Positions 54,336-64,000 of a stretch of DNA of 64,000 bases are shown piece after piece. Source of the DNA: Turneriella sp. (lineage in GTDB: Bacteria; Spirochaetota; Leptospiria; Turneriellales; Turneriellaceae); the NCBI GenBank assembly GCA_965279515.1, contig CBDIID010000003.1, positions 3,680,001-3,744,000 on the forward strand, written 5' to 3'. The position numbers and the translations under genes were made by a program. The notes beneath the pieces were generated by a model that had not been told where the DNA came from, did no database searches, and saw only the letters and a list, made by a program, of their open reading frames with translations. Each line of letters starts with the position of its first letter. The stretch's first letter is position 1.

Positions 54336-54365
54336 GAAAAGTGTTACTTATGTCGTGATAGTACC
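54336..54365. mobile_element. Solitary IS481 terminal repeat
   Basis: gaaaagtgttacttatgtcgtgatagtacc matches IS end 61808-61837 at 28/30. Confidence 0.85.
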
Positions 54366-54377
54366 CATCTTAATGGC

Positions 54378-54594
54378 GGCCAACGTGGATTTTACGCTGA
54401 CGTTTTTTGACGCTTGTGTCATTTATTCAATCTGTAAAGCCGATTTGCGTCAAAAAATGTGGTCGTAGCGGCTCGCGGCGACGCGCGAAAACACACCTCC
54501 CGGTGTGCGCGTCGTCCGCGATCTTTGCCGCGGAGACCCGAGCACGCGAGGAGCTACTGCACCGCAGCGGCGCAGCGCGTAAAATTTGTTGTCT
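54378..54594 (-). repeat. attC-like site A (217 bp)
   Basis: ggccAAC gtggattttacgctg ... cagcgcgtaaaattt GTTgtct. Confidence 0.85.
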
Positions 54595-54778
54595 GAAGTA
54601 ATTGCGCCTGTGAGCCCGGGCAAGGAGGCCCGGGCGAATAAAGGATAAGAGATTTTTCCATAAGAGGCCATCGGTTATCTTAACTTGCTACTTTTTGAAG
54701 TTAAACAGACTTTACACCTCGGATATCGTAGTTTTTGATGATTCTCTCGGTATAATTTCTTAGATAAGAATTGAATCC

Positions 54779-55255
54779 ATGGAAATTCCGGTTTTTCTGC
54801 CACTACCGAAAGGCATCACAGGTTTTTCGAACGCAGGCGAGCCTTTCGTAGGCTCTTTGGATAACAAATTCGTAAAATCCCTTGCCTTCTCCATAGATTA
54901 CTCCCAGCATTATAAGCTCTTTGATTTCAAGATGCCTCAGATCAGTGCTAATTATTTCAGGTTAACAATAGAGGATGGTCGGACAAATGATGTTTTCTCA
55001 ATTCTTATCAATGCTCACTATCCTTTTTATGCAGCTGTTACCAAGGAAAGTCAATGGATGAACTTGGTATTTATTGAAGCGCCAACTGCGATTCAAAATC
55101 TTTTCGCACCTCATTTTCAGTATCTTAGTCCCAAAGATTTGGGTCAAATTGTGCAGCCTGAACAGCTTATTTTATTAGGGGAATCAGAGCTGCAGCAAAT
55201 TACCAGTTGGAAGTCGGAACGCATTGGCGACATTGTTTTTAATGGATATGATTAA
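54779..55255 (+). CDS. Cassette 1 hypothetical protein (inverted)
   Basis: 158-aa AT-rich ORF between sites A and B. Confidence 0.75.
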   Translation: MEIPVFLPLPKGITGFSNAGEPFVGSLDNKFVKSLAFSIDYSQHYKLFDFKMPQISANYFRLTIEDGRTNDVFSILINAHYPFYAAVTKESQWMNLVFIEAPTAIQNLFAPHFQYLSPKDLGQIVQPEQLILLGESELQQITSWKSERIGDIVFNGYD

Positions 55256-55318
55256 TCGGCCAATGCCGGTCATAGCGTCGGCATGGATGCCGACGGGATA
55301 CAAAGGCGCAATTATTTC

Positions 55319-55537
55319 AGACAACGTGGAAAATACCCGAATTGCGCCCCCGCGGGTGTAAAGTGTAAATAATCACGGCTTTATGTGACTTTCGCGGGAG
55401 CGCATTTGCCCGAAGCGCCTCGCGGCAAAGCACAGAACAAGCGTCCCGCTTGTGCTTTGTCCGCGATCTTTGGCGCGCAGGGCCGAGCACGCGAGCCAAC
55501 GAAGTGCTCGCGGCGCAGCGGGTATTTTTTGTTAGCC
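55319..55537 (-). repeat. attC-like site B (219 bp)
   Basis: agacAAC gtggaaaatacccg ... cgggtatttttt GTTagcc. Confidence 0.85.
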
Positions 55538-55724
55538 GCCGTTACCGGATTCGCGCGGCTGGCGAGCAACCCGAAGGTCAGCGAGATACTGTAGTTCGAT
55601 ATTATTAGTAACCGAGGAGTTGTCGCCAGGATCAAAGGCGTAAGCAGCGAAATCTGGTTGTACTCTCTGATAACAAATCCTCTTTTTCTCCCCTTCGGGC
55701 GCGAAGGAGGTAATGGTGGCTAAC
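55531..55724. other. Cassette 2, 194 bp, no canonical gene
   Basis: Bounded by gttagccgccgttacc / ggtaatggtggctaac. Confidence 0.75.
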
Positions 55725-55934
55725 GTGGAAAATACCCGAATTGCGCCCGCGCGGGTGTAAAGTGTAAATAATCACGGTTTTATGCGACTTTCGTGGGAGC
55801 GCATTTGCCCGTAGCGCCTCGCGAGCCCGCCAATGCAGGCCCACTGGCCTGCGGGCGTAGCGATCTTCGGCGCGTAGGGCCGAGCACGCGACCCAGCGTA
55901 GCGGTCGCGGCGCAGCGGGTATTTTTTGTTAGCC
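55718..55934 (-). repeat. attC-like site C (217 bp)
   Basis: ggctAAC gtggaaaatacccg ... cgggtatttttt GTTagcc. Confidence 0.85.
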
Positions 55935-56121
55935 GCCGTTACCGGATTCGCGCGGCTGGCGAACAACCCGAAGGTCAGCTATATACTGTATTTCGATCTT
56001 ATTAGTCACCGAGGAGTTGTCGCCAGGATCAAAGGCGTAAGCAGCGAAATCTGGCTGTATTTTCTGATAAAAAATCCTCTTTTTCTCCCCTTCGGGCGCG
56101 AAGGAGGTAATGGTGGCTAAC
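55928..56121. other. Cassette 3, 194-bp paralogue of cassette 2
   Basis: Same length, 10 substitutions by manual alignment, no indels. Confidence 0.75.
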
Positions 56122-56331
56122 GTGGATTTTACGCTGACGTTTTTTGACGCTTGTGTCTTTTATTCATTCTGTAAAGCCGATTTGCGTCAAAAAATGTGGT
56201 CGTAGCGGCTCGCGGCGGCGCGCGAAAACACACCTCCCGGTGTGCGCGTCGTCCGCGATCTTTGCCGCGCAGACCCGAGCACGCGAGGAGCTACGGCACC
56301 GCAGCGGCGCAGCGCGTAAAATTTGTTGTCT
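56115..56331 (-). repeat. attC-like site D (217 bp, type A)
   Basis: Near-identical to sites A and H. Confidence 0.85.
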
Positions 56332-56545
56332 GACGTAGTTGCGCCTGTGAGCCCGGCATGGAGGCCGGGCGACTGCAGAAGAAGGCTGCCCAAAAAAATT
56401 CTGTTTGTCCCATGAAGAACAGGATTCACGCCTGAGACGGACAGTTGCTTCATTAGTTAAACGCGGCGCCAATTTCTTGGATGCTAAATGAACTAGTATC
56501 TCACCGCTTTCGGAAATATGTCATGCCGTTTTTTTGGCATAGGGA

Positions 56546-57085
56546 ATGGCAGTAATTCGTACAGTAAGGGCCATGGAAAGTAGAGTTAGAGTATTCTACA
56601 TCCGAAAAATGGCGATGAGGACATTTTTTATATATAGCCTCATCATTGCCTCGCGGCAAATCAGCGCTACTGGGGAGGGGATCGCTGGTATTACAACCGT
56701 TAATGCCGGTATAGAATTTCACACAGGCAAGTTAGGTCCGGTACCAACGGTCGGTCTGCTGGCGGGTTTCTACTCAATTGTCAGCGCGCACGTACATGCA
56801 AATTTATCCTACCGCCCCGCTGACGAAACTTGGCATACACGAGGTGGGTTTGGATTCGGCATTTTGAATTTCTTACTAAATCTGGACCTGACGTACCAAG
56901 CCGGTAATCAATCCTCCGCCGGATTTCTCTTTGGGGGATCCCTTTTTTGGGGGCTTCAGAGATTACATGATTTGCAAACTTTAGTCGAGGTGTTTTATGG
57001 CTATCAAACTAATTTTGCGGCAAGTACCGAGAATAGCTTGATCGGCGGTTTAAAAATTCATCTGAACCTTGGAAAGAAAATTTGA
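56546..57085 (+). CDS. Cassette 4 exported beta-strand-rich protein (inverted)
   Basis: Amphipathic strands; true start probably at MAMRTFF. Confidence 0.55.
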   Translation: MAVIRTVRAMESRVRVFYIRKMAMRTFFIYSLIIASRQISATGEGIAGITTVNAGIEFHTGKLGPVPTVGLLAGFYSIVSAHVHANLSYRPADETWHTRGGFGFGILNFLLNLDLTYQAGNQSSAGFLFGGSLFWGLQRLHDLQTLVEVFYGYQTNFAASTENSLIGGLKIHLNLGKKI

Positions 57086-57198
57086 TAACCATCCCGTGGG
57101 TTGATAATAGTTTCAACTAAACCGTGGCGAATAGCAATTTCTTAGATGTCAAAATTGATCTTTCGTGCACCTAGCAGCGTCTAATACAAAACAACACT

Positions 57199-57456
57199 AT
57201 GCGAAAATTCATAACGCCGCTATGTCTCATCTGTAGTATCGCCTTACTCGGCGACCTTGCTCACGCAAAACAAAGCAAGGGTGGATTGTGGGCTGGGCCT
57301 GAGACCTTACCGCCGGATCCTAAAAGGAAAAAGCCCGGAGAAGAATGCAAAGCCTCCGATGAATGCCAGCTCCATCATGAATGCAAGCAACAAGGCGATA
57401 AGGGTGTCTGCACCCCACCGCCGCCCTCAAGAATTCCACCCGGTGCCGTAACGTAG
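57199..57456 (+). CDS. Cassette 4 small secreted Cys-rich protein
   Basis: Signal peptide; C-x5-C-x5-C-x8-C, Pro-rich tail. Confidence 0.6.
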   Translation: MRKFITPLCLICSIALLGDLAHAKQSKGGLWAGPETLPPDPKRKKPGEECKASDECQLHHECKQQGDKGVCTPPPPSRIPPGAVT

Positions 57457-57988
57457 CCCGCCGGGCAGCGCGGCCCGGATATTCGCGATAGCATCGCCGG
57501 GATTCTCAAAAAACGTGCGCGTCACGCCATGGATTCGGGTATTGAGGCAAGTAGCGAAGCTATAAAAAACTGCTTCGAAAGCGTTTCTTTGTATGACATG
57601 CTGCCGACCCGGATTTATCACCGGGCCCGCGATGACGCTTGTTTCGGGCTGAAACAGTTTTTTTCTGCGCCGCCTACCGGTTTTGGGCGAAGGTTTCAAA
57701 AGCAGTTCTCTAACTTGCGGTTTCTGCCACCTGATTACGGCGGGTACGCGGGCAGGTTAGCAGACAAGCAGACCTTTCAGGTCTATCTGCGTTCGGTTGG
57801 AATGAATACAGCCCTTTAAAGCCATAAATATCCATAAAGAGTCGTTTTTGCCCATGAAAACAGGATTTACGCCTGAAAAGGTCCGTAGCCTAATCGTCGA
57901 AATGAGTATCAATTTCTTAGATACTTGGTCGCATTTAGTAGCTGGCGCCCGCATGGACGCGGGCGGGAAAAAACAGCGCAACTATGTC

Positions 57989-58210
57989 AGACAACGTGGA
58001 ATTTACACGAGGTCGATGGTGCGTCGCACAATAAAATTAGGCTTACTTGAAAAGCCGAGTATTAAGCACCATCGATCTGCCGAAGACCGCTCGTTGCGCC
58101 TGACCAAACAAACGTCCCGTTTGTCAGGCGTCAACGATCTTTGCGGTCGAGGCCGAGCACGCGAGGAGCCACGGCACCGCAGCGAGCGCAGCGTGTAAGT
58201 TTTGTTGTGC
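57989..58210 (-). repeat. attC-like site E (222 bp)
   Basis: agacAAC gtggaatttacacg ... cgtgtaagtttt GTTgtgc. Confidence 0.85.
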
Positions 58211-58236
58211 GACGTTGCCCCGCTGGAAAAAAATGC

Positions 58237-58596
58237 TCAAGCGTTTGCCGGTAGAACGGCTAATGTCGGAGCAGAGTAAATTGAGATAAATATGGCGTCT
58301 TCCGAAAAATCATTTATCGCGCCATGGACTTCGTCTTGTTCAGCAACCGCTATTTGCCCGGCAGAAATTATTGATTTCATTTGATTGCCGCGGAAATAGG
58401 TTAGCTGACCTTTAACCACAAGCCATGTATCTTGGCCGTCGGGATGGGTATGTACGGGAACTTCTTGCCCCGCTTTAACGCCCCAAATCGCCAAACTATT
58501 GGTTTTCGTAGTAGAAATGACGGTTACCGTCGCCTTGTCCTCTGAAAACCGTACCAATGCGGCCGTATTAAACAATCTAATTGCTTCTTTGCTCAT
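58237..58596 (-). CDS. Cassette 5 cupin-domain protein
   Basis: VHTHPDGQDTW...EVHGAIN cupin motifs. Confidence 0.85.
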   Translation of the reverse strand: MSKEAIRLFNTAALVRFSEDKATVTVISTTKTNSLAIWGVKAGQEVPVHTHPDGQDTWLVVKGQLTYFRGNQMKSIISAGQIAVAEQDEVHGAINDFSEDAIFISIYSAPTLAVLPANA

Positions 58597-58668
58597 GTGC
58601 CATTCGTCGCGGATGAAAGCATAATCTTACGGCAAACGCGCACGGAAATATATTCCGGGGCAATGTTC

Positions 58669-58930
58669 GCACAACGCGGGTTTTACGAGATTTGCGCCTC
58701 GCGGGTGTAAAGTGCTTTCAACGTGGAATTTACCTGAGGTTGAATGACGCTTCGTTCAACTTTGTGTTTTGTAAGGCCATGTTGCGTCACTCAATCTGCC
58801 CGAAGCGCCTCGCGGCAAAGCACAAACCAAGCGTCCCGCTTGTGCTTTGTCCGCGATCTTCTGGCGCGTAGGGCCGAGCACGCGAGGAGCCACGGCACCG
58901 GAGCGGCGCAGCAGGTAAATTTTGTTGTAC
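58669..58930 (-). repeat. 47-bp site stub plus attC-like site F (58716-58930)
   Basis: gcacAAC + B/C-type arm, then tttcAAC gtggaatttacctg ... caggtaaatttt GTTgtac. Confidence 0.8.
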
Positions 58931-58938
58931 GACGTTGT

Positions 58939-59610
58939 CTATAGGGCGGCCCATGGTTCCTGAAGCTGATTAACTTTGATAAGCTCGGTAAATGCTTTGG
59001 TATAATCTTTGAAAAGGCCGTTATGAGGAAAATCTTGCAGACTCAGATGGAAGCCAGTACCTGATTTGTACGCCCATTTTCTCAGCTTATAGAATGCTTG
59101 GGCGGCCTTAAAATTATTGAGTATTTTTTGGAAAACAAAGTTCTTCGTTTCTTCCATATCAAACATATCTTCTGCAAATGCGAGTATGACAAAGGCAGAC
59201 AATGGTTGCTTTTCGGTTTTTGATGAAGAACTAGGATTTAGAAAGTTCCAATAGAAAATCGGCGGATTCTCAGTTTCTGAACAGGTTTCCCAATGCGGCG
59301 CCCAAAGTTCCAAATGGCCAAAGCGTGAGTTAGCTGGATTTTCAGGTTTCGCGGGGGTGCCATAGGCCCATTTCAGAATGGATTTCTCGCTCAAATTTAA
59401 ACGACCCAAACCTTTCACTTTGGAATATTGGCCGTTCTTTACATACTCATAGGCCCTGATACCAAATGTCTGCTTCTTCAAAAGTAAAAACTCGTTGATT
59501 GCCGCCGCCACCGGACTTATGGCACGATAGTGCCATGGCATATTGTCGCCAGTTCTAATGAATATCGAATAAGTGTGATAGCTTCGGGTCCAAAAATTAA
59601 TCATAGACAA
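58939..59610 (-). CDS. Cassette 6 hypothetical protein
   Basis: 223-aa ORF filling the cassette end to end. Confidence 0.8.
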   Translation of the reverse strand: MSMINFWTRSYHTYSIFIRTGDNMPWHYRAISPVAAAINEFLLLKKQTFGIRAYEYVKNGQYSKVKGLGRLNLSEKSILKWAYGTPAKPENPANSRFGHLELWAPHWETCSETENPPIFYWNFLNPSSSSKTEKQPLSAFVILAFAEDMFDMEETKNFVFQKILNNFKAAQAFYKLRKWAYKSGTGFHLSLQDFPHNGLFKDYTKAFTELIKVNQLQEPWAAL

Positions 59611-59614
59611 TGTC

Positions 59615-59829
59615 GTACAACGTGGAATTTACCTGAGGTTGAGTGACGCTTCGTTCAACTTTGTATTCTGTAAAGCCATTTTTGCGTCACTCAATCTGCC
59701 CGAAGCGCCTCGCGGCAAAGCACAAAACAAGCGTCCCGCTTGTGCTTTGTCCGCGATTTTTGGCGCGTAGGGCCGAGCACGCGAGGAGCTACGGCACCGC
59801 AGCGGCGCAGCAGGTAAATTTTGTTGGGC
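59615..59829 (-). repeat. attC-like site G (215 bp)
   Basis: gtacAAC gtggaatttacctg ... caggtaaatttt GTTgggc; near-identical to F. Confidence 0.85.
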
Positions 59830-59845
59830 GAAGTAGCCTTTTCGG

Positions 59846-60487
59846 TTAAAGAGCTTTGCCAACAATGTAAGTGTCAATATCTACCTCTAGATTGAGCTTT
59901 GCCATACGATTGATTGTCTGAATATCAAAATGAATACCCGCATTGGCGCTTAGTGCCTGATGTCTGCATATTGAAATTTCTACCTCTGCCATCTTCGTTA
60001 AAGACAGAATATTTTCAGCATCTTTTTCAATCTCGTCTAATACTTTGCTTAATAGCGGCTTTAAGTCATAAGCCTCACTGTCTACAAATTCATAGCTTAC
60101 CAGACTAAATGTACGAGCTTTTCCGGTCCTTGGTTGCAAATCACCCTTTGACCAACCATCATGAGGCTTGAGCTTCGTAAACTTCGCAAGTTCAGCATAA
60201 GTGTGATTTTCTGAGATTACGTTCAAAGAACACTTGTGGCCGTTTTCGATCATGATCCAGGAGATCTCCAAAGATTCTTTTCGAACAAACACGACAAAGA
60301 AGAATCGTTCATCTAAAACACGAAAATAGACCGCCACACGGTCGGCTTCAGTTTCTTCATCAACCCTCTCAACTTCATAACCCAAGTCACCTTCAACCAG
60401 CTCCATAACAGACAAATACTGTTCTGTAAGTGCAAATGTCGGGTTCTTAATTTCTTCTACTGCTTTCTGAATGTATTTTTCTGACAT
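59846..60487 (-). CDS. Cassette 7 DUF4279-like protein
   Basis: Acidic 213 aa; WSKGD and GIHFD...LNLEVDIDTY. Confidence 0.65.
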   Translation of the reverse strand: MSEKYIQKAVEEIKNPTFALTEQYLSVMELVEGDLGYEVERVDEETEADRVAVYFRVLDERFFFVVFVRKESLEISWIMIENGHKCSLNVISENHTYAELAKFTKLKPHDGWSKGDLQPRTGKARTFSLVSYEFVDSEAYDLKPLLSKVLDEIEKDAENILSLTKMAEVEISICRHQALSANAGIHFDIQTINRMAKLNLEVDIDTYIVGKAL

Positions 60488-60502
60488 AAAAAATATCTTA
60501 AG

Positions 60503-61837
60503 GGTACAATATCAGAACATCGGTAACGAAAAGTCATCACGACATCGGTAACAGTTCTGCCTCAGGCTTTGCCGTGGTTTCCTCCTGATTTGGTGTAAAC
60601 AAATAATTGTTCCGATCGATGTAGCCCAATAGCAGGCTACCGAAGTAGACGTCGATGCGCATGTCGGCGATAAACCGGAGCCCGATCGGGTAGCCGTTAA
60701 AAGAATTGCCGATAAATATCCGGTGCTGCTTGTAGTTGGTGTAACCGCGGTCATTTACGATGCGTACGATGCAATCCTCAGGGTAGGCGGGTAGTACGTC
60801 GCCAGTATACGGAATTTCAGATGGTAGGTAGAACTCTGATGGCGTCCTCATGCCCAGGGCTTCATGCGGTCGCACATTGTTGAAGTCTTCGCGCCACTGA
60901 TCAAACGAAATCTGGTGAAGCTTTAGATCACCGCGAATGCGCCCCTGCAGTTCCGTGCGGATGTCTCTGTGCATACGCTCATGGCCACCATTCTGGGCTG
61001 GCTTTCCCGGATCAATGCGGTCCAGAGAAATTCCCAAGGACAGCCACCAGACTGACAATTTTGTCAGGCCAAAGAGGCCCCACGATGATGCGAAAGGAGT
61101 TCCGTTGTCAGAGCGAATAATTTCCGGCAGACCATAGCGTTTGAAGAGTCTGGCAAAGTGTTGTTTTACATTGGAAATATTGCCCTTTTCCAGTATCTGT
61201 ATCGACAGGATGTACTTACTGTACTCATCGCGAACTGTCAGAGGTTCGCATTTCTCTGCATGTGCAGTATACCACCACCCCTTGAAATCAACCGTCCATA
61301 TGTGATTGGGATGCGTCGCCTTTTCGCGAAGCATCAGCCTCTCTCCGGTTCTGCGGCGCTTCTTTCCTCTTGGCCTTGTCAGACCAGAGCGCGCCAGAAG
61401 GCGATCGACTGTAGGCACTGAAATATCGCCTTTGCGCTCGGGGTAAAGCCTGCAGAAGACCGCATAGATCTTCTTGGCTCCCCAGCGAGGCCTGTTATTC
61501 TTTATGCGAATAATGTCGCAGATTGTTTCTTCGTCAGTGCGGTTCGGATTGCCTCCTGGTTTTCGTGACAACTCCGCCAATCCAGCTAAGCCTTTTTCCA
61601 GAAACCTTGCCTTCCACTTGTACCCTGTCTTGGTGCTGATGCCAAACTCGCGGCACAGCTCTGTGAAACTCTCTACGCCCTCCAGGGCGCGAAAGACAAA
61701 AGATCTTTTCTCTTCCATTTTGGTAACCTCTTTCCACGGCATTTGAGCCCCCTGCCGAAGGCAGGCAAAAGCTCTTTGCGAAGCAAAGTGTTACCGATGT
61801 CTTGATAGAAATGTGTTACCTATGTCGTGATAGTACC
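60503..61837 (-). mobile_element. IS481-family insertion sequence
   Basis: Ends GGTAC...GTACC with repeated acatcggtaac motifs; TAAG(G) on both flanks. Confidence 0.85.
60537..61742 (-). CDS. IS481-family transposase (rve DDE)
   Basis: MPWKE, HTH, WTVDFKG, IRSDNG, QNGGHER, NNVRPHEAL. Confidence 0.92.
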   Translation of the reverse strand: MPWKEVTKMEEKRSFVFRALEGVESFTELCREFGISTKTGYKWKARFLEKGLAGLAELSRKPGGNPNRTDEETICDIIRIKNNRPRWGAKKIYAVFCRLYPERKGDISVPTVDRLLARSGLTRPRGKKRRRTGERLMLREKATHPNHIWTVDFKGWWYTAHAEKCEPLTVRDEYSKYILSIQILEKGNISNVKQHFARLFKRYGLPEIIRSDNGTPFASSWGLFGLTKLSVWWLSLGISLDRIDPGKPAQNGGHERMHRDIRTELQGRIRGDLKLHQISFDQWREDFNNVRPHEALGMRTPSEFYLPSEIPYTGDVLPAYPEDCIVRIVNDRGYTNYKQHRIFIGNSFNGYPIGLRFIADMRIDVYFGSLLLGYIDRNNYLFTPNQEETTAKPEAELLPMS

Positions 61838-61849
61838 TAAGGCTATTTC

Positions 61850-62067
61850 GCCCAACGTGGATTTTAGGCTGACGTTTTTTGACGCTTGTGTCATTTATTC
61901 AATCTGTAAAGCCGATTTGCGTCAAAAAATGTGGTCGTAGCGGCTCGCGGCGACGCGCGAAAACACACCTCCCGGTGTGCGCGTCGTCCGCGATCTTTGT
62001 CGCGGAGACCCGAGCACGCGAGGAGCTACGGCACCGCAGCGAGCGCAGCGCGTAAAATTTGTTGTCT
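61850..62067 (-). repeat. attC-like site H (218 bp, type A)
   Basis: gcccAAC gtggattttaggctg ... cagcgcgtaaaattt GTTgtct. Confidence 0.85.
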
Positions 62068-62153
62068 GAAGTAATTGCGCCTGTGAGCGCGGCTAGGAGG
62101 GCCGCGCGAATTCTGAGTTTAATTGCCTATTACTGGTCATTTCGCGTCGGCAT

Positions 62154-63137
62154 CTACCGGTGTGAGTCTAAGGCGGCGCGGGCTGACTTCTCTTGGTTTG
62201 CGATGTAATCCATAGGATGAAATTCATGGGGCGCCATGGCTTTTTCCTGCATGATCAGCCGATACCCATAGCAGAGCATAGGCGAGTCACCATCGACCAG
62301 ACCGATAGGTCCTTCTGTTTTCAGAGCTTTATTTTCCAGGCTGTAGATAATATCGGTTTCACTGCGTGCTTCGCGTATGATAAGTTTAGCTTCATTGCGC
62401 TTCCAAGTACACGACCTATCAACGCGGTTTCCATTATAGGTCAAGAGGGAAACGAGCCGGCATCTGCCATTTCTTTCTATATTCAGATAACGGTGTTCGG
62501 TTGAATTGCTCTCATCTAAATAAAGGCCAATAAATCCGTCGGTAAACGTCTGAAGGTATCGCGATCTGAGCCTGTCGCCCAGCTCTGCGGATATTGGAAA
62601 ATCTTCAAATGAATCACCTGCCTGTCGGAAGAATTTGATACCCGAGAGAGCCGTATCGGACCATTTCGCGCCTTTATAGACGGAAACGATTCTCAAGCTG
62701 ACCTGTTTACCCTTCAGAGTATCTTTCAAATCTATATTTTGTCTGCCCGCGGTGTCCTTAAGCGTATAGACAGTCTCGCTGCCACCTTCCGCAGAGAATC
62801 CGATTTCTTTAACGCGATTATTGAGCGGGAAAAATTTCGCATCGGAGTAACCATTCCAGACAGCTATCCGATGAATTTTTGCTTTCTTATCAAATAAAAA
62901 GGTGACGGTCTCGCCGATGCCGTCGTCGGCCTTGCCTTCAACCCAACTTGCTTGGGCGCCTTCACGAAGCAGCCACTCTGCACGGTATTTACCTGTCTCA
63001 GGTTCATGCTCGCTTGAGGCTTGTATTCCTGTGACTAAGGGAGGCATCTTTTCACCACAGCTAGGCAAGAAGACGAAAAGCATAAAAAAGGAACCGAATC
63101 GTAGCATAGTCACCCTCCAATCCAACGGGTGACCCAT
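62154..63137 (-). CDS. Cassette 8 lipoprotein with discoidin/NADase-type glycan-binding domain
   Basis: LPSC lipobox; SWVEG..DGIGE, VWNGY...NNRVK, VYKGAKWSDT. Confidence 0.7.
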   Translation of the reverse strand: MGHPLDWRVTMLRFGSFFMLFVFLPSCGEKMPPLVTGIQASSEHEPETGKYRAEWLLREGAQASWVEGKADDGIGETVTFLFDKKAKIHRIAVWNGYSDAKFFPLNNRVKEIGFSAEGGSETVYTLKDTAGRQNIDLKDTLKGKQVSLRIVSVYKGAKWSDTALSGIKFFRQAGDSFEDFPISAELGDRLRSRYLQTFTDGFIGLYLDESNSTEHRYLNIERNGRCRLVSLLTYNGNRVDRSCTWKRNEAKLIIREARSETDIIYSLENKALKTEGPIGLVDGDSPMLCYGYRLIMQEKAMAPHEFHPMDYIANQEKSARAALDSHR

Positions 63138-63292
63138 TACCCAAGGAGATAATCAGTCAAACATTAAACTGAACCGCCACATTATTAAATATGGCTTTTG
63201 AAGCGGGTAACTACCCTTAAACTGGTCATTGTGTCACGATAGCTTCACCGCGCCGACAGGAGGTCGGCGGATATCAAAGGCGCAATTATTTC

Positions 63293-63517
63293 AGACAACG
63301 CGGAATTTACCTGAGGTCGATAGTGCGTCGCGTAATAAATGCAGTCTTCACTCGAAAGCTGCGTTTTGATGCACTATCGATCTGCCGCAGGTCGCCTCGT
63401 TGCGCCCGACCAAACAAACGTCCTGTTTGTCGGGCGTCAACGACTCTTAAGCGACCGGAGGCCGAGGACACGAGCCAACGAAGTGCTCGCGCCCGCAGCA
63501 GGTAAATTTTGTTCTCT
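63293..63517 (-). repeat. attC-like site I (225 bp)
   Basis: agacAAC gcggaatttacctg ... caggtaaatttt GTTctct. Confidence 0.85.
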
Positions 63518-63677
63518 GACGTAGTTGCACTTATGAGCCCGGGCATGGAGGGCCGGGCGACCATTACTAAAATGCTGTTGTTCAAAAGACTAAAAAAAGC
63601 TTTTTTCAAGATTCTGGGTTAAATTAGCTAAGGATGAAAGTCCTTGACGCATCTAATTATTCATTCCAGAGGTCTAT

Positions 63678-63917
63678 ATGAGTATCAATGAATATGTGGT
63701 TATTGACCCTGATATCTGTAACGGCAAACCGACCGTAGCCGGTACTCGAATAACTGTCCAAACGGTTCTTGAATTCTTGGCCGTAGGGGAATCGATTGAG
63801 ACCATCGTAAAGAATTATCCTAGGCTTACGACCGTTAGTATTCAAGCATGTATCCAATTTGCCGCAGACATGGCGGGACACGAATACAGCATGCATAAAA
63901 TTGCACACGCTGGATGA
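63678..63917 (+). CDS. DUF433 antitoxin
   Basis: IDPDICNGKPTVAGTRITV...YPRL. Confidence 0.9.
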   Translation: MSINEYVVIDPDICNGKPTVAGTRITVQTVLEFLAVGESIETIVKNYPRLTTVSIQACIQFAADMAGHEYSMHKIAHAG

Positions 63918-64000
63918 AAATACTTATCGATGAAAATCTACCCGAAGACATTTCTTGCTGGAAGTCTGATGATTTTATCCATGCCAAGGCATTAGGTGCA
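63914..64000 (+). CDS. DUF5615 PIN-like toxin (truncated by window)
   Basis: ATGA overlap with DUF433; MKILIDENLP. Confidence 0.8.
   Translation, partial: MKILIDENLPEDISCWKSDDFIHAKALGA

Follow-up and report, generated by a model that had tools for sequence, protein, structure and literature searches.

The 64,000-nucleotide stretch of Turneriella sp. analysed here (the window; positions 3,680,001 to 3,744,000 of contig CBDIID010000003.1 in assembly GCA_965279515.1, or G000:C3:3680001-3744000) contains the beginning of a large array of cassettes. From position 54382 to the end of the window, conserved stretches of about 205 bp, here called sites, alternate with variable cassettes. Each site opens with GTGG directly 3' of an AAC triplet and closes with a T run ahead of GTT. 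We used the nine sites of the window as BLAST queries against the whole genome and obtained 152 intervals, 129 of which fall, all in plus orientation, in two arrays. One array contains 76 sites in about 80 kb (C3:90771-169936) and the other contains 53 sites in about 71 kb (C3:3734349-3804594). The window covers the first nine sites (9.4 kb) of the second array, which begins at 54365/54366 because the end of an insertion sequence (IS) truncates a cassette there (Table 1). Site length ranges from 186 to 254 nt, with a predicted branched end, and an Rfam scan of the window matched no family.

Each cassette carries a terminal inverted repeat whose two arms pair with each other. To measure this pairing, we compared the 30 bases 3' of each GTT with the 30 bases 5' of the next AAC, counting positions from GTT and AAC, in the 126 cassette intervals called between the 129 array sites. 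Site boundaries were set by motif, without use of the arms, and the boundary motifs were tuned on this genome. Watson-Crick pairs were present at positions 1-3 in 125-126 of the 126 intervals, at positions 4-10 in 110-122, at positions 12-16 in 115-122, at position 17 in 105 and at position 18 in 97. Past the stem, pairing dropped to 57-70 intervals at positions 19-22 and to 35, the background level, at positions 23 and 26. Scored on 14 positions (4-18 minus 11), the two arms of a cassette formed a mean of 12.87 pairs, and all 14 in 81 of 126 intervals, whereas arms facing each other across a site formed a mean of 6.62 (all 14 in 2 of 124) and arms taken from random other cassettes 6.53. These results bear out the proposal of a first-pass annotation, made from the sequence of the window, that ends match inside a cassette and not over a site; all eight arm pairs that it listed for cassettes c1 to c8 are present, as is the one extra base in c5 (Table 1). 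Positions 13-18 were fully paired in 90 of 126 cassettes, with 61 different hexamers, as against 5 of 124 comparisons across sites. Because these hexamers differ and nevertheless stay complementary, what selection has kept is the pairing itself, rather than a common word. The left-arm consensus, GTTNKSYGMMGT, which faces ATKKCRSMNAAC, has 12 conserved positions, with G8, G11 and T12 nearly invariant, and at least six cassette-specific pairs lie beyond these positions. Long pairing is therefore real, but the range of 16-22 bp originally given for the stem starts too low: the usual minimum is 18 bp, and c2 and c3, which pair over 16 bp, have a second G.T pair at position 8.

Position 11 did not form a Watson-Crick pair in any of the 126 intervals. 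A G in the left arm faced a T in the right arm in 121, and five showed another combination. Among non-redundant arm pairs, 89 of 94 had G.T at this position and none of the 94 had a Watson-Crick pair. The G.T pair that had been described as invariant in eight cassettes is thus non-random across the cassettes of the genome. Three of the five exceptions, c5 among them, are variants with one extra base, in which, by our reading, the G still stands opposite a T beside the bulge. Miscalled boundaries probably account for the remaining two, which have no repeat (3 of 14 pairs). The arms tolerate T.T at position 10 or a single bulged base next to it, and the neighbours of position 11 vary and co-vary. 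We ruled out a start codon or other coding reason for A/T at position 11, since no more than about 17% of arms have G at position 13. Cassette 9, which leaves the window, had been predicted to end with gtgcaactaTgtcagagaac, and an exact match to this sequence was found at G000:C3:3744299-3744318. The same rule held in five related genomes of the genus: 77 of 107 called intervals had at least 12 of 14 pairs, and all 77 had G.T at position 11. These 77 intervals comprise 74 distinct arms, 6 of which are common to this genome. Judged from these sequence comparisons, the wobble at position 11 is under selection against Watson-Crick pairing.

To place the point of exchange, we examined duplicated cassettes. 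Repeated cassettes keep the same site on their plus-strand upstream side in five of six families (upstream identity 92-100%, downstream identity 68-92%); the sixth family matches through an IS. Because the site is linked to the cassette downstream of it, the mobile unit is C-site-GTT-cassette-AA and exchange occurs between AA and C of the plus strand, in agreement with the earlier placement of the crossover at the AAC core. Under the integron mechanism, as set out in the available part of Nivina et al. 2016 (PMC5027507), exchange at this point makes the plus strand the bottom, or exchanged, strand. Open reading frames (ORFs) run predominantly on the other strand: in the 79 cassettes in which the longest ORF takes up half of the length or more, this ORF is on the minus strand in 56 and on the plus strand in 23. 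An attI-like junction, in which AAC is followed by GTCTATT..., closes both arrays of this genome. AAC followed by GTCTATTAKCTGMATTGCG occurs only twice in the genome, at these array ends (G000:C3:170673 and C3:3805399), and is a candidate attI on sequence grounds. A closely similar junction, AAC followed by GTYTATTCCCTG..., was found in two relatives (G002 and G005), 170 and about 910 bp before a recombinase gene, and a less similar one, AAC followed by TCCTTTTCTACG..., lies 90 bp before the recombinase gene of a third (G013). In these three genomes the order is right arm of the last cassette, attI-like junction and recombinase gene, the gene being directed away from the array. No attI-like junction was found in G011, the fourth genome inspected. 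Three independent lines of sequence evidence, namely site-cassette linkage, placement of the recombinase and junction in relatives, and ORF direction, identify the plus strand as the exchanged strand. The presence of the wobble on this strand is consistent with the strand-selection idea of the first-pass annotation.

The recombinase of this genome is a protein of 366 amino acids (C3:2926093-2927193) that retains the catalytic R, K, H, R, H and Y. The best fold match of its predicted model was the integron integrase VchIntIA (2A3V), followed by XerA, and it shares a C-terminal SPL tail with IntI. In seven genomes of the genus (G002, G003, G005, G007, G011, G012 and G013), the recombinase gene lies near array sites. 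Full-length array-linked proteins have 364-429 residues; the G010 copy has 284. The best whole-protein score on the integron-integrase model TIGR02249 was 161 bits, against a cutoff of 265, and neither this genome nor any of 13 genomes of the genus has a gene above the cutoff. Alignment to VchIntIA gave two blocks, between which the recombinase has 23 residues and the integrase 64. A gap of about 40 columns was also found against three canonical IntI proteins of the same phylum, and the predicted model showed no helix between residues 272 and 292. The short segment and the alignment gap show that the recombinase is without the I2 insertion, which, in the available passages of PMC7790495, is said to dock extrahelical bases and to block second strand exchange. 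In a quick tree, canonical IntI formed one clade (support 99) amid relatives without I2; the genus clade and a homologue from another locus, L045, stood beside homologues from the candidate phyla radiation (CPR; 97), with L053 and L055 placed elsewhere. We draw no conclusion from this quick tree, from which row L049 was dropped because the ORF did not overlap the match, on whether the lack of I2 is ancestral or a loss. A motif, GTTCTATTT(T/G)TGTTCTATATT, lies just ahead of the recombinase start codon in this genome (L004) and in the G002 locus and may be an operator. The genome also encodes a second recombinase of 301 amino acids (G000:C3:2781225-2782130; L001 1456-2361), which scores 149 bits on the integron-integrase model, is likewise without the insertion, and lies beside purM with no site nearby.

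We next looked at homologous and canonical loci. A search with the recombinase alignment gave 80 loci from many phyla, the window's own genus not among them, and we scanned their 932,178 bases for paired GTT.../...AAC ends. At 14 of 14 pairs, matches were found in 4 of the 80 loci, and two of these (L053 and L055) show the pattern. The strict match in L045 is an AT-rich palindrome and the two in L094 are a long perfect repeat, and neither was accepted; the two true cassettes of L045 were found only at 13 of 14 pairs. Wobble-marked arms are thus present in three other Spirochaetota metagenome-assembled genome loci, in five cassettes (two in L053, one in L055 and two in L045), beside recombinases of 35-42% identity. 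Sites are about 85 nt long in L053 and L055 and about 125 nt in L045. No such cassettes were found beside CPR, DPANN or Bacteroidota homologues within the flanks scanned. Canonical IntI genes (over the TIGR02249 cutoff) were present in 41 of the 401 genomes that we sampled in the phylum, and the arrays of two of these (G316 and G054) served as a control. Their attC hairpins measure about 58 nt from AAC to GTT, or 66 nt with full 7-bp boxes. In 26 intervals, pairing at positions 1-8 was found in 26, 26, 26, 25, 22, 25, 21 and 17, and then in 5, 4 and 8. Pairing thus extended through position 7-9 only, and no position-11 rule was seen. In the flanks of a third canonical IntI (G242), a crude detector found no attC-like hairpins. 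Because the canonical arrays are without this feature, the long wobble-marked arm is specific to the class with a recombinase that lacks I2.

To examine what the arms might do, we predicted folds of each site with the two arms of its cassette joined to it, as they would be in an excised circle; the energies and structures given here are predictions throughout. The plus strand is predicted to form a stem of about 20 bp containing the G.T pair, followed by two more G.T pairs that flank a 2-nt bulge (TG of GTGG). Beyond this spacer lie a perfect 10-bp L stem, which co-varies among site types, and a branched end of about 170 nt. On the minus strand, C.A mismatches are predicted at the same places and the spacer becomes a 2x4 loop. 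The plus strand was predicted to be the more stable in all 99 distinct sites, by a mean of 5.15 kcal/mol, with 4.32 G.T pairs per fold (minus strand, 1.18). The L stem has no bulge in the minimum-energy folds, in which TG of GTGG, on the AAC arm, is the only one; in folds of the canonical control sites, the classical T and G bulges are found on the 3' arm. Geometry allows the arms to meet beside the site only in the excised circle or with the cassette looped out. The circle context was predicted to add 12.7 kcal/mol of stability over the array context, in which about 4.7 of the 8 variable R-stem positions of a site are paired; this lends support to the earlier proposal that the hairpin forms fully only in the circular cassette. 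Measured from the cleavage point, positions 2-12 form an arm of 11 bp, which matches a Xer-type binding arm in size, and position 11 would fall about one helical turn from the scissile bond.

Considering these results together, we think it reasonably probable that the region is an array of an integron-type system that works through a fixed wobble and a recombinase without I2, as follows. Each terminal inverted repeat would represent the outer (R) arm of the recombination site of its cassette, divided into two halves. Because exchange falls between AA and C of the plus strand, these halves are separated and stand at opposite ends of the cassette in the array. Only in the excised circle would they rejoin, the right arm being followed by the site of about 205 nt and then by the left arm, and the site would act as a folded single strand. 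The fixed wobble would keep the exchanged strand a continuous helix accepted by the enzyme, helped by the two further G.T pairs beside the 2-nt spacer bulge, while the other strand would receive C.A mismatches. This strand asymmetry would replace the docking of extrahelical bases by I2 in canonical integrons, and the six or more extra pairs would clamp the long branched site in the circle, favouring insertion over excision. The features of an integron that we found are imperfect AAC...GTT hairpins with R and L boxes and an asymmetric spacer in the predicted folds, pairing over at least 18 bp between the cassette start and the inverse core of its own site, and, in relatives, a tyrosine recombinase gene with an attI-like junction at the array end. 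Absent are an I2 helix and a score above the TIGR02249 cutoff.

Several observations weigh against this interpretation. The minus strand is predicted to fold well too (mean -69.3 kcal/mol), and stability alone therefore discriminates weakly between the strands. No good repeat was found in 8 of 126 intervals here and in 30 of 107 in relatives, the latter mostly long. We attribute such intervals to missed sites, IS insertions and miscalled boundaries, and take the long ones in relatives to span sites missed by the motif. Conservation of positions 1-12 could partly reflect double-strand recognition. The recombinase gene is not linked to the arrays in this genome, where it lies about 800 kb or more from both, and linkage is therefore shown in relatives only. 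Finally, the only predicted bulge is on the AAC arm, the reverse of canonical extrahelical bases, which lie near L'' on the arm opposite the AAC triplet, and inverting those bases lowers recombination in canonical attC sites, according to the available part of PMC5027507.

We also considered that the wobble might be mainly a docking or flexibility mark for the recombinase without I2, with strand choice a by-product. It would then be a latent flip-out base one helical turn from cleavage that the enzyme needs in order to bind, to choose the active subunit or to prevent the second strand exchange. Position 11 does lie inside the conserved 11-bp arm with the invariant neighbours G8-C and T12-A, the tolerance for T.T at position 10 or an adjacent bulge does not extend to a Watson-Crick pair at 11, and the enzyme is without the dock for extrahelical bases that canonical integrases have (PMC7790495, available passages). 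However, the same facts suit strand selection, and the two other G.T pairs of the spacer suggest a general asymmetry and not one special base. We judge this explanation unlikely as a whole, although far from negligible. Taken by itself, the wobble may serve recognition or docking just as well as strand choice, or both.

The other alternatives concern the arms themselves. If the stem acted in the array, the arms of one cassette would pair in single-stranded DNA, loop out the cassette body and join the flanking sites for excision. The arms are indeed complementary over at least 18 bp whatever lies between them, and the R stem in array context is the incompletely paired one described above. Such loops would measure 0.2-9 kb, however, and adjoining sites are often of different types, so that their halves could not pair, which makes this improbable. 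We consider it very improbable that the arms are double-stranded half-sites whose complementarity is inherited and not selected. The consensus at positions 1-12 would fit such half-sites, but positions 13-18 are fully paired in 90 of 126 cassettes without any consensus, and a symmetric double-strand site would not be expected to deviate from symmetry at one fixed position (11). Inverted repeats at the bounds, a GTT start and an AAC end might also suggest miniature inverted-repeat transposable elements or IS-type elements with terminal inverted repeats, inserted in a tandem 205-bp repeat. This we regard as scarcely credible. The arms differ (61 hexamers, 94 distinct pairs) and yet remain complementary, which a sequence-reading transposase does not need; there is no target duplication, the flanks are conserved sites, and the site moves with one adjoining cassette. 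An IntI-like recombinase and an attI-like junction stand at the array end, and no transposase family matched any of the nine other cassette ORFs scanned in the window, the IS in c7 excepted.

The integron-type interpretation sets these arrays beside several known systems. Literature searches, which left most subscription journals outside, retrieved no account of arrays of this type, an extended R arm, a fixed wobble or a link to a recombinase without I2. Canonical integrons share with these arrays AAC/GTT at the exchange point, R and L stems with an asymmetric spacer, a single orientation of sites, a cassette start that pairs with its own site, an attI-like junction and recombinase gene at the array end, and cassettes with small ORFs of mostly unknown function. 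They differ in the number of paired positions, which is 7-9 in canonical attC sites of the same phylum and here 12 conserved plus at least 6 cassette-specific positions. The fixed G.T at position 11, the predicted L stem without bulges, the site length of 186-254 nt and the recombinase without I2 also set the present arrays apart. XerCD acts on the folded single-stranded attP of CTX-phi and thereby integrates the phage at dif. The present system would resemble it in having a recombinase without I2, in exchanging one strand of a site-mimicking hairpin and in resolution by replication, but consists of cassette arrays with a recombinase and an attI-like site of their own. CALIN elements (attC clusters without an integron integrase; Cury et al. 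2016, PMC4889954, as far as the accessible text goes) are comparable, since this genome has large arrays and no gene above the cutoff of the IntI model, but here a related recombinase is present and adjoins the arrays in relatives. In the 2016 IntegronFinder table, the one genome bearing a presumed genus name has no integron, In0 or CALIN call, which bears on these arrays only if that presumption is right. The accessible text of Nivina et al. 2016 (PMC5027507) reports that G:T mispairs are commoner on attC bottom strands (1.24 versus 0.39). As in that bias, wherever the exchanged strand has a wobble its complement has a C.A mismatch. The attC bias is an average tendency with no fixed place, whereas about 200 different cassettes of the present type share an invariant position that falls beyond the classical 7-bp box.

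A further proposal, to which we give somewhat less than even credence, is that the arrays are an unrecognised class of Spirochaetota integron that never had I2 or lost it, uses folded single-stranded sites and reads, instead of extrahelical bases, an R arm of 12 bp in which G.T is obligatory. In the available passages of PMC7790495, the I2 helix and docked extrahelical bases are the step from a Xer-like enzyme to the integron integrase, and intermediates are lacking. If our proposal is true, the system would be a living 'missing intermediate' or an alternative solution in this evolution. In this lineage, arrays as large as Vibrio superintegrons (129 sites here, and a span of about 190 kb in a relative) are kept with a recombinase without I2 and with differently built sites. 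The roughly 200 natural 'mutants' sharing one rule, that position 11 is never Watson-Crick, offer a handle on strand choice by tyrosine recombinases. These observations also suggest that surveys keyed to the canonical integrase and the 7-bp box may overlook whole integron classes.

Table 1 Array features in the window, with cassette arms and the bases at position 11 (window coordinates).
Feature	Position	Strand	Details
Right arm of truncated cassette	54366..54384	+	19 nt, T at position 11; array start in window
Site S0	54385..54587	+	attC body, AAC to GTT; ATTTTACGC type
c1 left arm	54588..54609	+	G 54598
c1 right arm	55304..55325	+	T 55315
Site S1	55326..55530	+	AAAATACCC type
c2	55531..55724	+	194 bp, no ORF; arms 55531-55546/55709-55724; G.T at position 11 (55541/55714) and at position 8
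Site S2	55725..55927	+	
c3	55928..56121	+	copy of c2; arms 55928-55943/56106-56121; G 55938, T 56111
Site S3	56122..56324	+	
c4	56325..57995	+	arms 56325-56344/57976-57995; G 56335, T 57985
Site S4	57996..58203	+	
c5	58204..58675	+	cupin ORF on minus strand; arms 58204-58222/58656-58675; one extra T in right arm; G 58214 opposite T 58664
Site S5	58676..58923	+	composite, second inner AAC-GTGG start
c6	58924..59621	+	arms 58924-58942/59603-59621; G 58934, T 59611
Site S6	59622..59822	+	
c7	59823..61856	+	DUF4279 ORF on minus strand and IS; arms 59823-59840/61839-61856; G 59833, T 61846
IS481-family insertion sequence	60503..61837	-	1335 bp, in c7 right arm at stem positions 16-19; TAAG target duplication
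Site S7	61857..62060	+	
c8	62061..63299	+	arms 62061-62082/63278-63299; G 62071, T 63289
Site S8	63300..63510	+	
c9 left arm	63511..63530	+	G 63521; partner 299-318 bases past window end

The IS in c7 belongs to an element with ten right ends in the genome, all within the two arrays and in one orientation. Nine of the ten lie exactly 18-19 nt before an AAC triplet, where the stem has its outer edge. Of five complete copies, three show a clear target duplication of 4 bp (TAAG, GGAG and TGCG); the fourth has GAG or GGAG and the fifth none. The insertion targets have no common sequence, and the element either recognises the edge of the stem or is placed by its distance from the conserved site. 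Site S5 consists of a partial site followed by a second ttcAAC-GTGGAATTTACC start, and looks like a lost cassette or two fused sites.

Just inside many cassette ends we observed GC-rich hairpins with the loop C-A/T-GGA-G/T-G (window 54611-54640, 55276-55297, 56352-56373 and others). All 28 on the plus strand fall within the arrays (3% of the genome), and all three on the minus strand lie outside. At least 14 different cassettes have an identical 22-nt arm together with such a hairpin. The 194-bp cassette without an ORF (c2 and c3) belongs to a family of 11 copies, always with the same site type before it and with the second G.T pair at position 8; it may be a promoter or small RNA cassette. 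An NADase_transloc (F5/8 type C) domain was detected in the c8 ORF (62154-63137, minus strand), together with a weak match to AcrIIA4 below the cutoff. The c8 cassette was found at 99% identity or more in contigs of two wastewater metagenome runs. Joints in the assembled contigs of public runs come from repeated sites elsewhere in the arrays and cannot indicate excised circles. In cassette 9, window positions 63678-64000 contain a DUF433 ORF followed directly by a second short ORF that leaves the window, and the two may be a toxin-antitoxin-type pair.

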